This document shows positions 3,312-24,404 of a DNA stretch of 64,000 nt, piece after piece. This stretch comes from Escherichia phage REP4, in the sequence record OQ174503.1; one strand, written 5' to 3'. The notes below the pieces were generated by a model. It saw only the letters and a list, made by a program, of their open reading frames with translations. It was not told where the DNA came from and did no database searches. The first letter of the stretch is position 1; each line of letters begins with the position of its first letter. The position numbers and the translations under genes are program-made.

Positions 3312-3363
3312 GTTCTTCTCACTTGGTTAATGATTTATACTCCGAGCCATCCTTGGCTTTAAA

Positions 3364-4365
3364 TTACTTAATTAACTGTAAAGCTTGTTCAAGACGATCC
3401 AAGCGATTAACAGATTCTTCCCAAATCCTTTTAGCCTTCTCATATTCTTTCTGTGCTTTATTAGAAATTTCTAGAACTTCCTTATAAGCTTTTTCTAATG
3501 CAATAACTTCTGGACGAATTTCTACCGGTTTAGGCGAATCATCAAGATTATCCATTAGTTCCTCAAGGGTAGTTTCTTCTTTAGGAGTATTCACAATTTC
3601 ATCACATTTTTGTTGGTAAATTTCTTTATCAGTCGGTGAGTACGTACGTTTCACTTCACGAAGGCTAATTATAATTTTATATCCTTCCCAACCACACATA
3701 TTTTTGAAAGGATATGTATGAATACTTTTTACGGTTTCCATACAGCCCAAAGCCGCCTCTAATTGATAAGTTATAGTGCTAGCAATTGAGAAAAATTTAT
3801 TAATATTCTTTTGGTTAGCGTTTGGTGTAAAAAATCCATAATTCACAAAAATAGCTACTTTATTTTTATCAAGCTCATATTCTTTTACGATAACCATATC
3901 AGAAGCCAAAGGATGAATTTGACGATAATCGCCATAACATAATTTAGAAGCTGATTTTAGAATCTGTCCTTTGAAAAGCCTGAAATTACTAATCCAACGA
4001 CGAGTAAAAATATTCTCAGGGTCTTCTTTATTATTAAGATGATAAGAATTAACATCACCGAACCAATTATATCCTACTACATCTTTAGTTCGTTTAATTT
4101 CTTTCCCAAATTTACCAAGAATATCTCTGTTGACTAAGTATGAAAGAAGACGAGACCCTTTAAAGGTTTTCTTAATGTCATCTTTATCTGTACGACTAGA
4201 AATTTCACGAACTTCGTGAATAAATCTGCTGGAAGAAACAATGCTTACATCAATATTATTGAGCCATTGATTGATAATAGAAAGAACACTATTCTGACTA
4301 GACTTAGGTTTAACTTTATCATCAATAACGCTATTGAATGATTTGATATATTCGTTACGAGTCAT
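3364..4365 (-). CDS. Hypothetical protein, member B of tandem family; start moved to internal Met (MTRNEY...) because track start overlaps an early promoter
   Basis: ORF track 3364..4416; promoter-like GTTTAC/TGGTATAAT at 4394-4423. Confidence 0.55.
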   Translation of the reverse strand: MTRNEYIKSFNSVIDDKVKPKSSQNSVLSIINQWLNNIDVSIVSSSRFIHEVREISSRTDKDDIKKTFKGSRLLSYLVNRDILGKFGKEIKRTKDVVGYNWFGDVNSYHLNNKEDPENIFTRRWISNFRLFKGQILKSASKLCYGDYRQIHPLASDMVIVKEYELDKNKVAIFVNYGFFTPNANQKNINKFFSIASTITYQLEAALGCMETVKSIHTYPFKNMCGWEGYKIIISLREVKRTYSPTDKEIYQQKCDEIVNTPKEETTLEELMDNLDDSPKPVEIRPEVIALEKAYKEVLEISNKAQKEYEKAKRIWEESVNRLDRLEQALQLIK

Positions 4366-4423: not shown

Positions 4424-5445
4424 TAGTTCAGTGCATTTAGTGCATTGTTCAGTTTAGAACGTTGCTTCGTGAGATTTTTGACTTTTTCTTGAGCTTTTTC
4501 TAGCATCTTTTCAGCTTCTAACACTTCATTAGTTGCTTTAACGAGTTCATCATCTACTGCCTTGATAGACTTCTCAATCGCATCCGCGTGCCATTTTTCA
4601 ACAGGTTTAAGACTCGGATTTTCAACAGGAAGAAAATTCGCTTTATTGAATTTCCATGCATCCTTATTACCTGAACTATACATCCAAAATTTAGGATCGT
4701 TTGATGAGTAATTGGATAAATTTAAGATATCTTGCACTTCTTGCTTTTTCTCTTGCGTGACTTCGTCCTTTCTCAAAAAATCGTATTTAAATGAAACGAT
4801 CATATCAAGTTCATACGTTGTTGTGTCTAATTTAAATCGTTCAAAACGAGGTAAAATCTTAGACTGAACAGCGGCAACAACATCCATATACTTAAATGCT
4901 TCTGTCAACTGCGATTTAAGGCATTCGCAAATTGAAAGAGAATTTTTTGTATTAGGTTTAAAGCTAATTCGTGCAGTTCTATTATTTTCTTTTAATGGTC
5001 TTACTTCCATCTGAAGAGTATAACCATCAAATTTCAGATTCTTTAAGTTAATATCAGAACCTTTTAATCGACTCGCAGTTGATAAAATTTGCTTTAATTG
5101 TCTACGGAACAGAGCAATAAATCTCCATTCAATACGATAATGATTTGGATTGAAAAATCCAGATGATAAATCGACCTTACTTTGACCAACGCCTTGAACA
5201 AATAGAGGATTTTTATAATCAATAGTTTTACAGAAATCGGTGAGCTGCTCACGGGCCGTCATTTGTGTAATATACCCTGCTTTACTAAAATTACGCACCC
5301 ATTCACTGCTATTCGTATACTTAAAGTGATGAATAACACGATTAACTTTATCAGGGTCTAAATTATTTTCACACAAAAATGTCATAACATCACGAGTATA
5401 GCTGGCATTACGAACCATATCTTCAATTTGAGAACGAGTTTTCAT
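4423..5445 (-). CDS. Hypothetical protein, member C of tandem family
   Basis: 340-aa ORF, ATG with AAGGAA RBS; shares RxxWRF..LF..QLKQIL-type segment with member B and C-terminal coiled coil. Confidence 0.6.
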   Translation of the reverse strand: MKTRSQIEDMVRNASYTRDVMTFLCENNLDPDKVNRVIHHFKYTNSSEWVRNFSKAGYITQMTAREQLTDFCKTIDYKNPLFVQGVGQSKVDLSSGFFNPNHYRIEWRFIALFRRQLKQILSTASRLKGSDINLKNLKFDGYTLQMEVRPLKENNRTARISFKPNTKNSLSICECLKSQLTEAFKYMDVVAAVQSKILPRFERFKLDTTTYELDMIVSFKYDFLRKDEVTQEKKQEVQDILNLSNYSSNDPKFWMYSSGNKDAWKFNKANFLPVENPSLKPVEKWHADAIEKSIKAVDDELVKATNEVLEAEKMLEKAQEKVKNLTKQRSKLNNALNALN

Positions 5446-5453
5446 GGTATTCC

Positions 5454-6344
5454 TTAAGATTTAAGTAAATCAACGATTTTAATTAACTTTTCACGCTCAG
5501 ATTTAGCTTTACTACTCAATCCAGATAGTCTGAAAATTTCATCGTCATATTGTTGAATAGAAATATTCAGCTCTTCAATTTGCTTATTAAAATAATCAAT
5601 TTGTTCAGAATGTTTTTCGTTACTACGAACTGGTACAGGTTTTGTAGGCAATTTAGTTGAACTGGATTCATCCGGGCGATAAATTAAAATACAACTTGAA
5701 CCAATAGGGCATTTTGCACCAGATGAATATTCTAATGTTCCAGCTTCTTTTAAAACTTCAAAAGCCAAACAGAGATGATGCCCCATATTAACATAATCTG
5801 TAGAGTGAGCTCTGATGTAATAATCATCTCCGCGAATACTGAATTTAAAGCATTTAAGGTCTTCTGTATTATTGGTCTTAAAAATCATTTGTTTATCTAG
5901 ACCTTTAGCTAATCGAGCGCCTAATGCTAATAATCGTCGTTGATTTTCCCACAAATCCGTTATCATTTGATCGAATGATAATTTTGGCATTAGTCGACCA
6001 TAAAGGTCATATCCTTTATTATAATTACGAAGGATTTCGCTCGCATTAATACGAGACAACGCTCCAATTTTATTAAGGGCTTTCATAATGCGATTAGATA
6101 AACTCATTCCAGACCCGGTTGTTCGCTGCAAATGTTTTTCTAATCCAAATCCAATATCAACTTTAAACTTATCTAAAATTTCTGCATGAACATCTTTGTC
6201 GATAACATTCAAATCCAAAGTTGGGTTAAATCTATGAAAAAATTTATCTGGCTCTCCACGGCGAAGTACAGTCCATTCATTCATCGTTTTTTTATTAACT
6301 AATGATTTAATTACTGCATTGACATTATTAATTACTACTGACAT
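5454..6344 (-). CDS. Hypothetical protein, member D of tandem family (start at internal Met MSVVINN... after upstream stop)
   Basis: ORF track 5454..6380; C-terminal coiled coil ...KSEREKLIKIVDLLKS. Confidence 0.55.
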   Translation of the reverse strand: MSVVINNVNAVIKSLVNKKTMNEWTVLRRGEPDKFFHRFNPTLDLNVIDKDVHAEILDKFKVDIGFGLEKHLQRTTGSGMSLSNRIMKALNKIGALSRINASEILRNYNKGYDLYGRLMPKLSFDQMITDLWENQRRLLALGARLAKGLDKQMIFKTNNTEDLKCFKFSIRGDDYYIRAHSTDYVNMGHHLCLAFEVLKEAGTLEYSSGAKCPIGSSCILIYRPDESSSTKLPTKPVPVRSNEKHSEQIDYFNKQIEELNISIQQYDDEIFRLSGLSSKAKSEREKLIKIVDLLKS

Positions 6345-14361: not shown

Positions 14362-14568
14362 TCATTTTGGTTTACCTTCTTTAACAAAATCGGGATAAGG
14401 ATAAAATCCTGAATAAAATCCTTCACCTTTATGATTAATGCATCCTTTATTAGAGCAATAGCACCAATAATCGAAATCACAAGCCATTTCATCATTGCAT
14501 AAAGCAAAAACAACTGGCCATTTACACTTTTCACAATGTGCATTTTTAAGAATGCTAGTTTGGCTCAT
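14362..14568 (-). CDS. Small Cys-rich (zinc-binding-like) protein
   Basis: Track ORF 14362..14589 trimmed to internal Met MSQTSILK; eight Cys (CEKC...C...C..C.C...C). Confidence 0.45.
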   Translation of the reverse strand: MSQTSILKNAHCEKCKWPVVFALCNDEMACDFDYWCYCSNKGCINHKGEGFYSGFYPYPDFVKEGKPK

Positions 14569-14777
14569 AACCGTGTAACCTTTAAGCAATATTCTTCTAC
14601 ATGCTGTTTACGACCTTTCTTATCAATAAAGGTATATTCAACGAATGTTCCAATATAGTCTTTATCTACATCATGTGGACTATTAATTGGGCATTTAGTA
14701 CGGCAAATGCGTTCCCATTGACGAATAATTTCCACTTTGTTTTTAGGATCAAACGGATGCGGGTAATGTGCTTTCAT
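14565..14777 (-). CDS. Small hypothetical protein
   Basis: 70-aa ORF starting ATG. Confidence 0.45.
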   Translation of the reverse strand: MKAHYPHPFDPKNKVEIIRQWERICRTKCPINSPHDVDKDYIGTFVEYTFIDKKGRKQHVEEYCLKVTRL

Positions 14778-18766: not shown

Positions 18767-19240
18767 TTATTTGAACGATTTAACGTACTGAATAGAACCT
18801 TTACTATTCACGAAAGCGATTTTACCATTTTTATTATACATGGTAGCAGTACGCTGATAGCCATAAGTTTGCTTACCAGATTGATAACCAACTAATGCAA
18901 AATTATCTTCACCCATTTTATTCTGTTTAGCGCGAATGCGTTCATGACCATGTGCCATAAGAACCTTAGCATCACCAGTTGCAATGGATCGACGAGTTTT
19001 TTCATCTTCAACTGTATTAACAAAGTCGTCAAATGAATCAAATTTAGCATGAGATTTATTATACAGTTTTCCATCTACTGCATAATTATATCCCTGTACA
19101 TCCATCTCAACTTCTGTACCATCATCCAATACAGCAGTGATTTTCTGTCCTTTTTTAAATTTCAAAAGATCAGTAAAAGATTCAGCAATAATTTGAGAAT
19201 TAATAGTTGCTTCAGTAATAAATTCTTGATATGTTTTCAT
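18767..19240 (-). CDS. Internal-protein-like head cargo protein with capsid-targeting sequence (MKTYQEFITE|A)
   Basis: N-terminal 10-residue motif matching the T4 IP capsid-targeting sequence and gp21 cleavage context (I-x-E). Confidence 0.7.
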   Translation of the reverse strand: MKTYQEFITEATINSQIIAESFTDLLKFKKGQKITAVLDDGTEVEMDVQGYNYAVDGKLYNKSHAKFDSFDDFVNTVEDEKTRRSIATGDAKVLMAHGHERIRAKQNKMGEDNFALVGYQSGKQTYGYQRTATMYNKNGKIAFVNSKGSIQYVKSFK

Positions 19241-19256
19241 GTGTATCCTTTAATTT

Positions 19257-19574
19257 TTATTCTTTAGGGAAGTTTTTAGAATATGCATCATAAAGCTTAT
19301 TTCCAATACGGCGGAAAACTCTAGCCGCAAAACGATTTTCTGGGTTTTTAATCATGATTTGCATCATATAAGTACCCGCGTCAGAAAGAGCTTCTTCATA
19401 GTACCCGTTAATTTCTTTAAGAGTCCTACGTTTACCACCAGGACCATCAACAGTGATTTTCCATTTACCTGTAGAAGTGCGACTTGGCGGCTCAACTTGT
19501 TCAATCCAGATATAACCGCCTTCTACACGTTGTCCTTGGGCAGATTCTGCAATAAATTCTTTAAACGTTTTCAT
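19257..19574 (-). CDS. Internal-protein-like head cargo protein with capsid-targeting sequence (MKTFKEFIAE|S)
   Basis: 105-aa ORF; capsid-targeting motif; own early-type promoter upstream. Confidence 0.7.
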   Translation of the reverse strand: MKTFKEFIAESAQGQRVEGGYIWIEQVEPPSRTSTGKWKITVDGPGGKRRTLKEINGYYEEALSDAGTYMMQIMIKNPENRFAARVFRRIGNKLYDAYSKNFPKE

Positions 19575-19645: not shown

Positions 19646-20614
<969 letters not shown>

Positions 20615-20633
<19 letters not shown>

Positions 20634-21103
20634 TCAGTGATAAAATTATTTAAATTTTGAGTATATTTCTTTTCATCAAAAATCTTTTGCTGCCTACGTA
20701 ACCGCCATGGCATTTCAATGAACACGCACCATATTCCTGATAGTACTGCTGCTGTAAAAATATTAACAAGTATAATTAAAAGAATCCAATCTTCCGTTCT
20801 GCCTACTGGACTTTCTCCAAAGAAGCAAAATACAAATGATGTCACAGGAAAACTAATAATATACCACAGAATCATAATCTTATCTGTGAACCAATCAGCG
20901 TTCGTTAATTTAGCGCGACCATTATGAATACACACGAATTTATCATCTGTTGCAGTAGATGGCTTAACTGGTTGATATCCCATTCTAAACTCCCTAATCA
21001 GCAAATTTTTCATATCTTCGGAACAGCCATTCCAGTCAACTCTATCAACTGAAATGCCATCATCCCCGTCATCTAAATCATACCAGCGAGTTTTTAAAAT
21101 CAT
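20615..21103 (-). CDS. Membrane protein (array member 3), C-terminal ...FITECRKLK
   Basis: Track ORF 20615..21118; start at internal ATG overlapping upstream stop; hydrophobic helices. Confidence 0.5.
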
Positions 21104-21462
21104 TTGATTTTCCTGCAATCACTCACAAACTCTTTCATTGATTCATTTTCAATATAAGACATGTAGCTATTATATTCTTTTAATTGTATTTTGTAATCCT
21201 TTTTTCTTTGCCAATTTATTTTAAAATTATCATAATGAAAATATAGCATGGTACCAAAGAATGAAAATAATGAAATAATTTTAGTATAGCGAAGTTCACT
21301 CCAAACTTCTATTATATTTACTGTGCCGTCGATGTTTAAAATAAGACAGTCAATTAATAATCCAAAAAGACTACCCGCAAGAGCTGCAGCCAACGCCACA
21401 GCAAAAATTAAAAATGACTCAGGAAGCGAATATTTGACTTTATTTAGTTTTGGCTTTTGCAT
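21100..21462 (-). CDS. Membrane protein (array member 2), C-terminal ...EFVSDCRKIK
   Basis: 120-aa ORF with two hydrophobic helices. Confidence 0.5.
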   Translation of the reverse strand: MQKPKLNKVKYSLPESFLIFAVALAAALAGSLFGLLIDCLILNIDGTVNIIEVWSELRYTKIISLFSFFGTMLYFHYDNFKINWQRKKDYKIQLKEYNSYMSYIENESMKEFVSDCRKIK

Positions 21463-21836
21463 CGTGATTCCTTAACAAATTTCATAATTTCATCAAATTC
21501 ATACGCAGCAAGTTTAAGCTGATGTTCCTTTTTAATCTTTTTACACTGTGCTTTCCAATCACGTACGCGTTTACGATAATGCCTTCCTTGATACCAGTAT
21601 CCTACCCAATTTACAGGTACTAATAAAAGTGGAACTATTAATGGAAGAATTAGCATTAACACAAGTATTTCGCCAGAATCAATATCAGTCATAACATCTA
21701 AAACACCTCCAATAATCAATAGAATTACAAATGATATGAGTATAACAGGACCTATTAATACATCAGTAGGAATTAGCTGGCGCTTTAATTCATACTTCAA
21801 AGGTTTACTTGGAAGGTATAGTGATGGCTTTGACAT
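21444..21836 (-). CDS. Membrane protein (array member 1), C-terminal ...KFVKESRCKSQN
   Basis: Track ORF 21444..21857 begins with a non-ATG codon; first ATG at 21836 (MSKPSLY...). Confidence 0.5.
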   Translation of the reverse strand: MSKPSLYLPSKPLKYELKRQLIPTDVLIGPVILISFVILLIIGGVLDVMTDIDSGEILVLMLILPLIVPLLLVPVNWVGYWYQGRHYRKRVRDWKAQCKKIKKEHQLKLAAYEFDEIMKFVKESRCKSQN

Positions 21837-22413
21837 ATTCTCTACATTCCTTAACAAATTTTTCTAGTAATAAATCACTTTCAAAATTAGGATTTTCCAC
21901 TAATTTATCAAAAAGATCATCAACAATATTCAAGATATTTCTTTTACTAAGAATACGTTTATTTTCATGCTTCGTTTCAGAATCAACTATAAGAGTAAAG
22001 AAATATTTCTTTCCCTGAAATTTTACTGTAGTATCAATATAGAATAAATTTGACTTTTGTAAGTTACGTTTAAACCATGCGTCACTTAAACTATAAACAC
22101 CGAGATAATCAAAATCGTCGTTTAAATAACAAACTGTCCATTCAGGAGAAATGAAATCAGTAAATTCAACATCAAAATCACATGTCAATAAATGAATTGA
22201 TTCAATATTGTTAATAAGTATTCCAGGACGTATTAAAGACTTTTTACCTCTGGAAAATCTTCCAGAAAGACTTTCATCAGTTTCATATGAAGAACCCCAA
22301 TAATAATTACGTCCTTCTGCCATACGTTTAAGAGCATTTAGTAATTGATCTGGAACATCAACCTGTCTTTGGAACTCTTCAAACATTGAATTGAAATCAC
22401 TTTGCATTTTCAT
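21805..22413 (-). CDS. Hypothetical soluble protein, C-terminal ...EKFVKECREYVK
   Basis: 202-aa ORF starting ATG. Confidence 0.5.
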   Translation of the reverse strand: MKMQSDFNSMFEEFQRQVDVPDQLLNALKRMAEGRNYYWGSSYETDESLSGRFSRGKKSLIRPGILINNIESIHLLTCDFDVEFTDFISPEWTVCYLNDDFDYLGVYSLSDAWFKRNLQKSNLFYIDTTVKFQGKKYFFTLIVDSETKHENKRILSKRNILNIVDDLFDKLVENPNFESDLLLEKFVKECREYVKAITIPSK

Positions 22414-22454
22414 TCCTATTTACTCCAAGTAATAGGGGCCGAAGCCCCTTATCA

Positions 22455-23048
22455 TTATTTCAGAGAATTAATGTATTCCTGAACATCGGCAGAAGTAGTT
22501 TCAACCCCAGAAATATTACCGTTAAAGGTTTCAACTCGAGCAAGGGTATCTTCAATATCAACCTTAGTCAGTGCTGCAATTTCAACTACATCATCAGCAG
22601 TACTAATTCCAAGGGCATTTGCCGCACGAGTTTCACGGATATATTCCAATTTAACTGCAAGTTCTTGGCGAGCATCATCTAACTCAACTACTTTCTTAGC
22701 GATTTCAATTCGCATTTCGGCATAACCGTCAGCCTTAGTAGTCAACTGCTCAGCTGTTCGACGATATAGTAAACCAAGTTTAGCATGCATTGTTACATCT
22801 TGACCTTCGGAAAGAAGCTTGCGAATTTCACGCTCTTTTGATTCGGCCTGTCGATTCTTTTCGATAACAAGTTCACGAATACGTTTTTCTTCATTAATAG
22901 ATTTAACGGAAGCAGTTTTTAGATCTTTAATTTTATCAAGTAGTTTTGCTGCTGCAGCAGTATACTGTTCTTCAACAGATAGATTTTTAGCCATAGCAGA
23001 ACCAAGTTTAGTGCGAATAAAATCAACAATTTTCTTCAGTGTGTTCAT
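22455..23048 (-). CDS. Coiled-coil protein with PspA/IM30-like architecture (tentative)
   Basis: 197-aa, predominantly helical, charged heptad-rich sequence with amphipathic N-terminus [15 protein letters not shown]. Confidence 0.35.
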
Positions 23049-23091
23049 AGTATTTCCTTAGGTTAATTAAGATTTAAAATCCATGAGAGTA

Positions 23092-23268
23092 TTATACTCC
23101 GGATAGTTTGTAAACTATTTCAACATCGCCTTTTGCTGCTTTATAACCTTCAGCCCAAGATACAACCGAGTTTTTATCTGAAGATTCAAATTCTGGCATT
23201 GGACTTTCATCAATGTTCACACAGTATGTTTCTTCATTTTCGTCAAACCAAATAGTTAAAGTAGTCAT
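23092..23268 (-). CDS. Small acidic hypothetical protein (58 aa) missed by ORF track
   Basis: ATG at 23268..23266 preceded by GGAGAAATAA; translation MTTLTIWFDENEETYCVNIDESPMPEFESSDKNSVVSWAEGYKAAKGDVEIVYKLSGV. Confidence 0.4.
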   Translation of the reverse strand: MTTLTIWFDENEETYCVNIDESPMPEFESSDKNSVVSWAEGYKAAKGDVEIVYKLSGV

Positions 23269-23336
23269 TTATTTCTCCGCTTCTGTGATTGTTTTGATAA
23301 GTCTATAATAACACCGTCCTTGGTGTTTGTACACAC

Positions 23337-23840: not shown

Positions 23841-24404
23841 TTATTTACCTAGTTTAGTTATTATAGCTTCTGCGGCAGCTTTTAGTTTAGATGCGGTGTT
23901 AATACGATTTTTAATTTCAGTATACGCATCGCCAAGAACGTCAAGGCTATCAGAATAAACGCTTACACTATTGCGTTCGCTATTTGAAATAGAACCTTTA
24001 GTTTTACGATCAAAATCAATGTACACGTCTTGAAGATCATGGGCTGCCTTCTTTGCATCATCCAATGCATCAAGAGCTTTATTCAAAGCATTAACGTATT
24101 TTTTAGTGTCGAACATATTCTTAGAAATTTTAACAGGCGCACGTTCAGGAGTAGCTAAGGCAGATTTAGGAACCTGAGCGCCAGATGCCAGTTTCTTAGA
24201 AATTTTGAAAAATGCTTTATTGAATTTATTTTCTTGACTCATCGTAAAAGAACTATTATCGATGTTATACATTTCAATAGCTTTAGCTTTCCACTTAAGA
24301 AAATCGCCACGGTCTTTTGGGTCCAATTGGAAGAATACTTTAGTAAGTTCTGCTTCAGATGGTAATTTTGCTGCTTCGGTTAAAAATTCGGCATAAGTTT
24401 TCAT
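23841..24404 (-). CDS. Internal-protein-like head cargo protein with capsid-targeting sequence (MKTYAEFLTE|A)
   Basis: 187-aa ORF with capsid-targeting motif; terminator hairpin of the upstream gene lies just before it. Confidence 0.65.
   Translation of the reverse strand: MKTYAEFLTEAAKLPSEAELTKVFFQLDPKDRGDFLKWKAKAIEMYNIDNSSFTMSQENKFNKAFFKISKKLASGAQVPKSALATPERAPVKISKNMFDTKKYVNALNKALDALDDAKKAAHDLQDVYIDFDRKTKGSISNSERNSVSVYSDSLDVLGDAYTEIKNRINTASKLKAAAEAIITKLGK

Follow-up and report, generated by a model that had tools for sequence, protein, structure and literature searches.

ATGA overlaps that couple successive cistrons, with the Shine-Dalgarno sequence lying inside the upstream gene, are common in T4 and in bacterial operons. 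The internal-protein (IP) loci of the T-even phages, reportedly described by Repoila et al. in 1994 (EMBO J), are said to combine unrelated gene bodies with a short conserved terminal peptide, and their homologous flanks are thought to mediate shuffling. Promoter-early stem-loop (PeSL) elements, intergenic units of ~100 bp with a sigma-70-type promoter and a G+C stem-loop, transcriptionally isolate cassettes in T4-type phages (Arbiol et al. 2010, PMC2839356; Comeau et al. 2014, PMC4122927), and T4 deletes and amplifies DNA between microhomologies of 6-10 bp (Srikant et al. 2022, PMC9391042, and older work on rII and genes 16-18 cited there). Here we analyse the e-block of Escherichia phage REP4 (OQ174503.1), in which four consecutive genes upstream of nudE, namely e.5, e.4, e.3 and e.2, encode proteins with a common C-terminal peptide. 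The window analysed is a stretch of 64,000 nt (64 kb), and coordinates count from its first letter.

We propose, with a probability of roughly 0.55, that a conserved C-terminal peptide overlaps the ribosome-binding sites of this block, that e.3 and e.4 are duplicates, and that recombination at the gene junctions removed e.2 from some relatives. T4 is the reference lytic phage and its e.2-e.6 have no assigned function; the shared peptide provides a concrete handle on them.

A shared C-terminal peptide and its junctions

The peptide F-[VI]-x-[DE]-[CS]-R is common to the C-termini of all of e.5, e.4, e.3 and e.2; its fuller form is (hydrophobic)-x-x-F-[IV]-x-[ED]-C-R-[K/E], of which e.4 carries the version F-V-K-E-S-R-C-K. 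As a regular expression, F[VI]x[DE][CS]R has exactly four matches in the six-frame translation of the window, all four at these C-termini, against ~0.07 predicted from composition for an expression that was defined post hoc with the data already seen. Over 98 kb more of T4, the Cys form has no match. The window contains 17 ATGA stop/start overlaps, and the tail is present at two of them, both in the e-block, and absent from each of the remaining 15. Across 28 clusters of e.3 the F, D, C, R and K of the motif are invariant, and an e.3 variant at ~60% identity retains it. An earlier sequence-only reading of this DNA had noted similar C-termini in three small membrane proteins and the 202-aa protein upstream of them, which our analysis confirms for all four.

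The five cistrons from e.5 to nudE (Table 1) are separated by no intergenic base and overlap consecutively by 32, 19, 4 and 4 nt, the last 32 nt of e.5 being the start of e.4 and the last 19 nt of e.4 the start of e.3, whereas the two shortest overlaps are ATGA stop/starts at 20615-20618 and 21100-21103. To judge from this layout, translation of the run is probably coupled. A Shine-Dalgarno sequence stands 5 nt before the ATG of nudE and e.2 (AGGAAA) and of e.3 (AAGGAA); at e.4, AAGGAA lies 11 nt ahead of the annotated ATG, and its role as a ribosome-binding site is less clear.

Two pairs of DNA repeats coincide with these junctions. In the first, TGCAGGAAATTAAAATGA at 20615-20632 and TGCAGGAAAATCAAATGA at 21100-21117 are alike at 16 of 18 positions (80% over 30 nt), and the consensus TGCAGGAAA[T/A]T[A/C]AAATGA matches the window twice, against 0.01 matches expected; the two copies of its TGCAGGAAA core are 485 bp apart. 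The second is an exact 16-mer, AAATTTGTTAAGGAAT, at 21467-21482 and 21846-21861, which still has just two matches when two mismatches are tolerated (0.2 expected). Homology between the e.5/e.4 and e.4/e.3 junctions extends around it for ~45 nt and reaches into the opening codons of the downstream gene (M-S/Q-K-P). Promoter-like sites are no more frequent in the region than chance predicts (21 against an expected 21.3) and never fall at a junction, and the sole G+C hairpin of the region is that in the e.6/e.5 spacer, with none at the junctions. Both repeat pairs had been recognised in the sequence-only reading, and both are real and unique in the window, although the consensus of the first had been written one A too long and with C/T in place of A/C at the second variable base, and the second copy of the 16-mer had been placed one position off. 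That these modules hold ribosome-binding sites stands for nudE, e.2 and e.3, less clearly for e.4, and the ATGA overlaps assigned to the first pair are present.

The window belongs to Tequatrovirus, its bases 20100-22500 being 99.9% identical to Escherichia phage vB_EcoM_G50 and matched by 513 phage records at 80% identity or more. Genes were named from synteny with annotated T4, T2, G50 and PP01 records together with PHROG profiles. The orthologue groups of e.2-e.5 were assigned over full length with PHROG E-values of 1e-60 to 1e-109, and their position between e.6 and nudE is conserved. The two Pfam families in Table 1 (PF26873, PF26876) are precomputed matches on orthologues; a local Pfam search of the window proteins gave zero matches. 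The G50 annotation gives the hairpin upstream of e.5 as a putative terminator. Beyond it, e.6 encodes 197 aa, apparently all-helical and coiled-coil-like, for which neither Pfam nor PDB sequences gave a match; its fold may be PspA/IM30-like. Some records name it 'host specificity protein', a name that nothing found here supports.

Table 1. Genes, motif copies and junctions of the e-block and its flanks, in window coordinates.
Feature	Coordinates	Strand	Description
e.6	22455-23048	-	upstream neighbour of e.5
G+C-rich hairpin GGGGCTTCGGCCCC	22433-22449	-	in the 41-nt e.6/e.5 spacer; upstream edge of the gap-free e.5-nudE run
e.5	21805-22413	-	202 aa, soluble; PHROG 2607; Pfam PF26876 Phage_T4_Y06P; ends ...EKFVKECREYVKAITIPSK, ...LLLEKFVKECREYVKAITIPSK
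e.4	21444-21836	-	130 aa from ATG at 21836; PHROG 2604; Pfam PF26873 Phage_T4_Y06O; ends ...MKFVKESRCKSQN
e.3	21100-21462	-	120 aa; PHROG 2330; ends ...KEFVSDCRKIK; ATGA overlap with e.2
e.2	20615-21103	-	162 aa; PHROG 2203; ATGA overlap with nudE
nudE	20178-20618	-	Nudix hydrolase; last cistron of the overlapping run; outside the motif family
e	19646-20140	-	lysozyme
Motif copies (regular expression)	20627-20644, 21112-21129, 21462-21479, 21841-21858	-	C-termini of e.2, e.3, e.4, e.5
Junction e.5/e.4	21805-21861	-	AAATTTGTTAAGGAAT (21846-21861), then GTAGAGAAT, ATGTCAAAGCCATCACTA...
Junction e.4/e.3	21444-21482	-	AAATTTGTTAAGGAAT (21467-21482), then CACG, ATGCAAAAGCCAAAACTAA; e.3 ATG at 21462
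Junction e.3/e.2	21100-21129	-	TTT GTG AGT GAT TGC AGG AAA ATC AAA TGA; second TGCAGGAAA copy
Junction e.2/nudE	20615-20644	-	TTT ATC ACT GAA TGC AGG, then AAA TTA AAA TGA; one copy of the 9-bp TGCAGGAAA

Other tails deserve mention in their own right. In the tk region of the window, a Cys-rich 75-aa open reading frame (ORF; 14362-14589, minus strand) ends ...DFVKEGKPK at an ATGA overlap, coded by the Shine-Dalgarno-like AAAGAAGG; the likeness of its FVKE to the motif is probably a coincidence. A second tandem family with a common C-terminus exists in Mosigvirus and Dhakavirus, where 3-4 small soluble ORFs end G-(A/G)-W-(V/I)-S-S-S-x-x-C (spans 4787-5581 and 31-1070 in the source records); in Mosigvirus they lie directly downstream of e.3, and no ORF of the window has this ending.

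Predicted topology, kinship and probable selection of the tail

By hydropathy, e.2 and e.4 contain two strong hydrophobic segments each, and e.3 a strong first and a weaker second one. The connecting loops are short and acidic, the ends are basic and the positive-inside pattern is present in all three, which supports a predicted fold as two-segment membrane hairpins with both termini cytoplasmic (N-in/C-in). The membrane assignment made in the sequence-only reading is supported accordingly for e.2, e.3 and e.4, the 202-aa e.5 being soluble. We would place the three hairpins in the inner membrane, with C-terminal tails that are basic, 31-54 residues long and exposed to the cytoplasm; e.2 carries a 75-aa N-domain, predicted to be cytoplasmic, ahead of its two transmembrane segments and tail. 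In the AlphaFold2 model of e.3 (predicted local distance difference test, pLDDT, 73), one continuous helix spans residues 58-119 from the second transmembrane segment to the motif, and the tail is the most confident part. The model of e.5 (pLDDT 63.6) has the motif inside a terminal helix, 181-196. The peptide would, on these models, cap a basic cytoplasmic helix running on from the second transmembrane segment in e.2, e.3 and e.4, and lie in the last helix of e.5.

Profile comparison with hhalign gave an alignment of e.3 with e.4 spanning 117 columns, beginning at the N-terminal M-x-K-P-x-L and running through the motif, with scores of 32-37 and probabilities of 61-85%. None of the 24 controls scored above 24 (best 24, probability 11%); they were reversed profiles and a set of 16 further small T4 proteins, Imm, Sp and rIII among them. 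Pairwise Smith-Waterman z-scores agree with the profile comparison (z = 3.6 for e.3 against e.4). These alignments give moderate support to e.3 and e.4 being likely full-length tandem paralogues, and tandem duplication of a junction-plus-gene unit predicts the ~45-nt homology of their upstream junctions. The two units would then derive from duplication of a segment made up of the tail, the Shine-Dalgarno sequence, the start codon and the two-transmembrane body. A Mosigvirus membrane ORF of 101 aa also aligned with e.3 over 50 columns covering the second transmembrane segment and the tail (probability 72%).

The remaining proteins behave differently. The alignment of e.2 with e.3 is limited to the last 15 residues, and e.5 aligned with the others over 9-10 columns with scores of 15-29, mostly in the decoy range (at most 26 against e.2, e.3 and e.4, and 28.8, slightly over the best decoy, against the Mosigvirus 101-aa ORF). 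On this evidence e.2 and e.5 appear to share nothing with the other proteins past the last 10-15 residues, and would be otherwise unrelated proteins bearing the same tail; the question left by the sequence-only reading, whether the proteins are related outside their last residues, is thus answered differently for e.3/e.4 than for e.2 and e.5. A HMMER search of 1.84 billion representative proteins with the e.3 profile returned seven matches, all Tequatrovirus or Mosigvirus e.3 or noise, and built no bridge to e.4 or e.2; word-indexed protein searches with e.3 and e.5 found close relatives alone. With the tail alignment from three genera as query, only short fragments of the same families were retrieved, a method that is uninformative on other tail-bearing families.

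Comparison of Tequatrovirus, Mosigvirus and Dhakavirus separates the peptide from the DNA that encodes it. The Dhakavirus (Bp7, MX01) homologue of e.2 has 38-48% overall identity and terminates in ...SFIKECRK or ...EFIEECRK. The Mosigvirus (ATK47) C-termini are ...QFIMECREYVKA... (QFIMECREY) for e.5, ...EFVKEIRCKS... for e.4 and ...NFIKECRK for e.3, and the additional 101-aa membrane ORF, 2.4 kb away, has ...NFIKECRGK. Across the three genera the Arg of the motif is encoded by AGG, AGA, CGA or CGT and the Cys by TGC or TGT. The Shine-Dalgarno sequence falls in the K-E codons (AAG GAA) of e.5, e.4, Mosigvirus e.3 and Dhakavirus e.2 and in the R-K codons (AGG AAA) of Tequatrovirus e.3 and e.2, and the F, [IV] and C of the motif lie outside it. 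In four of five comparisons between genera, the 11-residue motif is 73-82% identical, against 35-53% for the remaining protein.

Because the residues are kept across genera despite differing codons and a shifted Shine-Dalgarno position, the peptide appears to be selected as protein, its codons doubling as the ribosome-binding site of the next gene. The purine-rich motif codons, AAG GAA or AGG AAA, would serve as the Shine-Dalgarno sequence of a translationally coupled downstream gene, and this double constraint of peptide and ribosome-binding site would account for the near-identical junction DNA within one genome. The sequence-only reading had the C-termini come from the DNA modules; conservation of the peptide in Mosigvirus and Dhakavirus with other codons reverses that causality.

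Loss of e.2 and other variants of the locus

In T2, e.2 is missing exactly, and e.3 ends ...DCRKLK with an ATGA overlap straight onto nudE. The joint reads ...GAT TGCAGGAAA TTAAAATGA..., that is, e.3 codons through TGCAGGAAA followed by the e.2/nudE-type TTAAAATGA, leaving one chimeric junction. The same joint is found in T2, PP01, JE01, ZCEC14 and two metagenome contigs, is contiguous in at least 39 records, and sits on e.3 alleles scattered over the e.3 tree. The whole region is present in ~497 records and the interior of e.2 in 441, a difference that suggests a loss in ~50; overall we put the genomes without e.2 at about 40-55 of ~500 in Tequatrovirus, or about a tenth. Dhakavirus also has e.2 upstream of nudE, and the T2 state is therefore most simply a deletion, i.e. 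a loss of e.2. We propose that e.2 was lost by recombination between the two TGCAGGAAA copies, which would yield the T2-type allele with e.3...DCRK-LK followed by nudE; the highly active T4 recombination system, acting between junction copies sharing 9-16 bp, would in general delete the intervening DNA with frames and ribosome-binding sites intact.

Two further observations concern e.2 in T4 itself. The records LR597660 ('T4_ev151') and LR597657 ('T4_ev240'), named as evolved T4 derivatives, have the T2-type e.3/nudE joint without e.2, although e.2 is present in reference T4; either recombination or selection of a deletion in the laboratory may explain them. The e.2 of the T4 reference (AF158101, 2976-3464) is split by frameshifts into three ORFs of 102, 30 and 51 aa, whereas the window copy is intact, and in several further isolates e.2 gives tblastn matches in two pieces. 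It appears that e.2 is decaying in some lineages, or that the reference contains sequencing errors.

Other rearrangements of the block break elsewhere. Among ~500 genomes, none has a deletion of e.4 between the exact 16-mer copies, and essentially all Tequatrovirus genomes retain e.4. An in-frame e.4(1-31)/e.2(87-162) fusion, formed at a 6-bp microhomology, TCCTGT, within the coding sequences, occurs in five near-identical UFV isolates. In an uncultivated virus genome of Mosigvirus (~3324-3426, gene orientation), the body of e.3 is lost (~250 nt), yet the final ~30 codons with ...NFIKECRK remain, as does the ATGA junction, which fits a putative need of the junction for expression of the downstream gene. 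The blocks of identity between the window and IME339 or JE01 end not only at the joint of the e.2 deletion but also within nudE, e.3 and e.4, and breakpoint clustering at nine loci gave no evidence of a hotspot at the junctions. In neither the ~500 genomes nor the Mosigvirus and Dhakavirus loci did we see a foreign gene between two junction copies. A scan of viral contigs for FIKECRK followed by a stop gave five matches, four of them Mosigvirus or Dhakavirus e.3 or e.2 and one a chance match, with no new gene body. One candidate for a cassette replacement, P0056, an 83-aa ORF with an unrelated N-terminus and an e.2 tail, was rejected: its scaffold of 524 bp holds ~115 nt of T4-like DNA with unrelated flanks on both sides, nudE is truncated after 23 codons, and the whole looks like an assembly chimera.

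Next to the e-block, a true cassette swap has replaced T4 e.7 (111 aa) by a 58-aa ORF (23092-23268, within 23064-23335, minus strand). T4 homology ends just past the e.8 stop and returns ~16 nt before the e.6 ATG; both borders are intergenic and without the motif. Upstream of the 58-aa ORF, TGTACA-N17-TATTAT, with a hairpin ACACC...GGTGT between the hexamers, resembles a PeSL promoter and stem-loop. IP loci lie on both sides of the e-block: the ORFs 18767-19240, 19257-19574 and 23841-24404 (minus strand) begin MKT(Y/F)xEF(I/L)xE, which we take to be the capsid-targeting leader of T-even internal proteins, and the first two occupy the positions of ipIV and ip10 in PP01.

These variants bear on the view, developed from the sequence-only reading, that the junctions are a dedicated recombination linker, conserved for in-frame insertion, exchange or excision of cassettes as a coding analogue of PeSL. 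The exact bounding of the e.2 loss by a repeat speaks for such a linker, as do the homology of the e.5/e.4 and e.4/e.3 junctions, the PeSL precedent (PMC2839356), and the extra x-K codons and AGG that Tequatrovirus e.3 and e.2 tails share and that Mosigvirus and Dhakavirus orthologues lack, a pattern suggestive of the copying of one junction onto the other inside Tequatrovirus. However, a single polymorphism falls at a junction, no foreign gene was seen between copies, exact identity extends over just 9-16 bp, and the longer repeat, the 16-mer, has no deletion; the remaining rearrangements use unrelated microhomologies, the e.7 swap is bounded by intergenic promoter/hairpin DNA, and the sole case of a new body with an e.2 tail is the apparent chimera. 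We consider a dedicated linker unlikely. Cassette duplication or exchange thus stands as far as the presence or absence of e.2 at its junctions and the proposed e.3/e.4 duplication go, with no exchange at the junctions; alignment across relatives likewise reveals a gene set that is not wholly fixed, e.2 having been lost, and in which the other variants break elsewhere.

Alternative explanations, function and known systems

The tail could also be a neutral scar of duplication, carried along with the junction and persisting through recent ancestry and gene conversion without selection. The junction homology does run into the start of the next gene, and the near-identical junction pairs differ by genus (e.5 with e.4 and e.3 with e.2 in Tequatrovirus, e.5 with e.3 in Mosigvirus), a pattern that fits concerted evolution. 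Nevertheless, the motif persists across three genera whose proteins are 30-47% identical overall, is better conserved than the remainder of the protein and shows synonymous codon turnover, and e.2 and e.5 have no detectable kinship to e.3/e.4 beyond the tail, for which simple duplication is insufficient; a scar is in our judgement improbable. A pure RNA or DNA by-product, in which the C-termini are similar solely from encoding a Shine-Dalgarno sequence and a stop/start overlap and the peptide has no role, is a poor candidate: AGGAAA or AAGGAA does stand 5 nt ahead of three of the four downstream ATGs, other coupled genes of the window likewise have K/E/G-rich ends from Shine-Dalgarno-like purines (...KVKE, ...EYKAE, ...DFVKEGKPK), and the Mosigvirus genome with the e.3 body deleted retains tail and junction, but the Shine-Dalgarno sequence occupies different motif codons from junction to junction and leaves out F, [IV] and C, the Arg and Cys codons change synonymously between genera with the residues constant, and none of the 15 other ATGA junctions carries the motif.

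As to what a selected tail might do, it may be an interaction or assembly motif linking the hairpin proteins with the soluble e.5. We tentatively suggest, as a possibility that we hold more doubtful than the shared peptide itself, that F-[IV]-x-E-C-R-K is a short linear docking or assembly tag that caps a cytoplasmic helix and joins soluble e.5 and the hairpins e.4, e.3 and e.2 in one inner-membrane complex or to a common host or phage partner, possibly acting via the invariant Cys/Arg. Searches for function gave little: T4 Imm, Imm.1, Sp and rIII compared with the e-proteins by hhalign reached probabilities of at most 1.5%, PADLOC gave no match, Foldseek of the e.5 model against the PDB gave nothing under E = 0.03 (TM-scores ~0.15), no useful match came from phmmer searches of PDB sequences with e.5 and e.6, and a literature search found no paper on e.2-e.5. 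The superinfection exclusion, lysis timing and envelope-directed anti-defence suggested in the sequence-only reading are neither favoured nor disfavoured by these results. We also considered the tail as a gp21 cleavage site, given the EFI[AT]E of the IP leader beside the [EN]F[IV]xE of the tail, and dropped this idea in view of the C-terminal position of the motif and the nature of the e-proteins, which are early and either membrane-bound or cytoplasmic.

Several points weigh against our proposal of a selected peptide, duplicated e.3/e.4 and junctional loss of e.2. The e.5 model is of low confidence at its pLDDT of 63.6, and the position of the motif in the fold is tentative. The homology of e.3 and e.4 is just moderate, with shallow profiles from a family restricted to Tequatrovirus and Mosigvirus. 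Overlap with the start of the following gene could account in part for the conserved ECREYVKA of e.5 and RCKS of e.4. Some lineages can dispense with the motif: some e.3 alleles are truncated (97 aa), T4 e.2 is frameshifted and e.3 of one Mosigvirus is a remnant. The e.2-less joints are all identical and have a common nudE 5' haplotype, and the deletion may have arisen once and spread by homologous recombination, which would say little on the frequency of junction recombination. Neither the tail nor the proteins have a function from any experiment or database match (Pfam, PADLOC, PDB).

If our proposal holds, the peptide marks residues to mutate, a bait peptide, and proteins that probably act together. 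The doubly selected sequence becomes a standing direct repeat that permits clean removal of a gene, a coding counterpart to the intergenic mechanisms of PeSL and IP flanks. Were the docking tag also true, the block would be a small, self-contained, modular membrane system in which loss or duplication of a subunit could leave frame and expression intact. In practical terms the finding carries modest weight, given a narrow family (Tequatrovirus, Mosigvirus and Dhakavirus), genes that decay in several lineages and one junction polymorphism.

Set beside ordinary coupled cistrons, the e-block has the same two ATGA and two longer overlaps with the Shine-Dalgarno sequence within the upstream coding sequence; however, ordinary coupling yields no shared peptide of 6-10 residues. 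The IP loci form a polymorphic array next to the e-block and, like it, join different bodies to a common terminal peptide. Their peptide, however, is N-terminal, serves capsid targeting and gp21 cleavage, and is flanked by ~70-bp promoter/inverted repeats, whereas that of the e-block is C-terminal in a nearly fixed gene set. Microhomology deletions of T4 likewise have endpoints in short direct repeats of which one copy is kept, here 9 bp for the e.2 loss and 6 bp for the UFV fusion; those repeats are due to chance, whereas one e-block pair would be held by selection on peptide and ribosome-binding site, with a deletion product that is automatically in frame.

The likeness to PeSL lies in a boundary repeat that ends in the downstream Shine-Dalgarno sequence and start codon, in recombination that excises the flanked gene and leaves one chimeric copy, and in a setting within a plastic region of small early genes. 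Unlike PeSL, the e-block junctions have no intergenic DNA (overlaps of 4-32 nt), promoter or hairpin; the repeat is a 3' coding end with exact identity over 9-16 bp, and the genes remain in one coupled unit. The e-block works somewhat like PeSL and is not a member of that class: it is known T4 genome plasticity with a previously undescribed shared peptide, rather than a cassette system at the DNA level.

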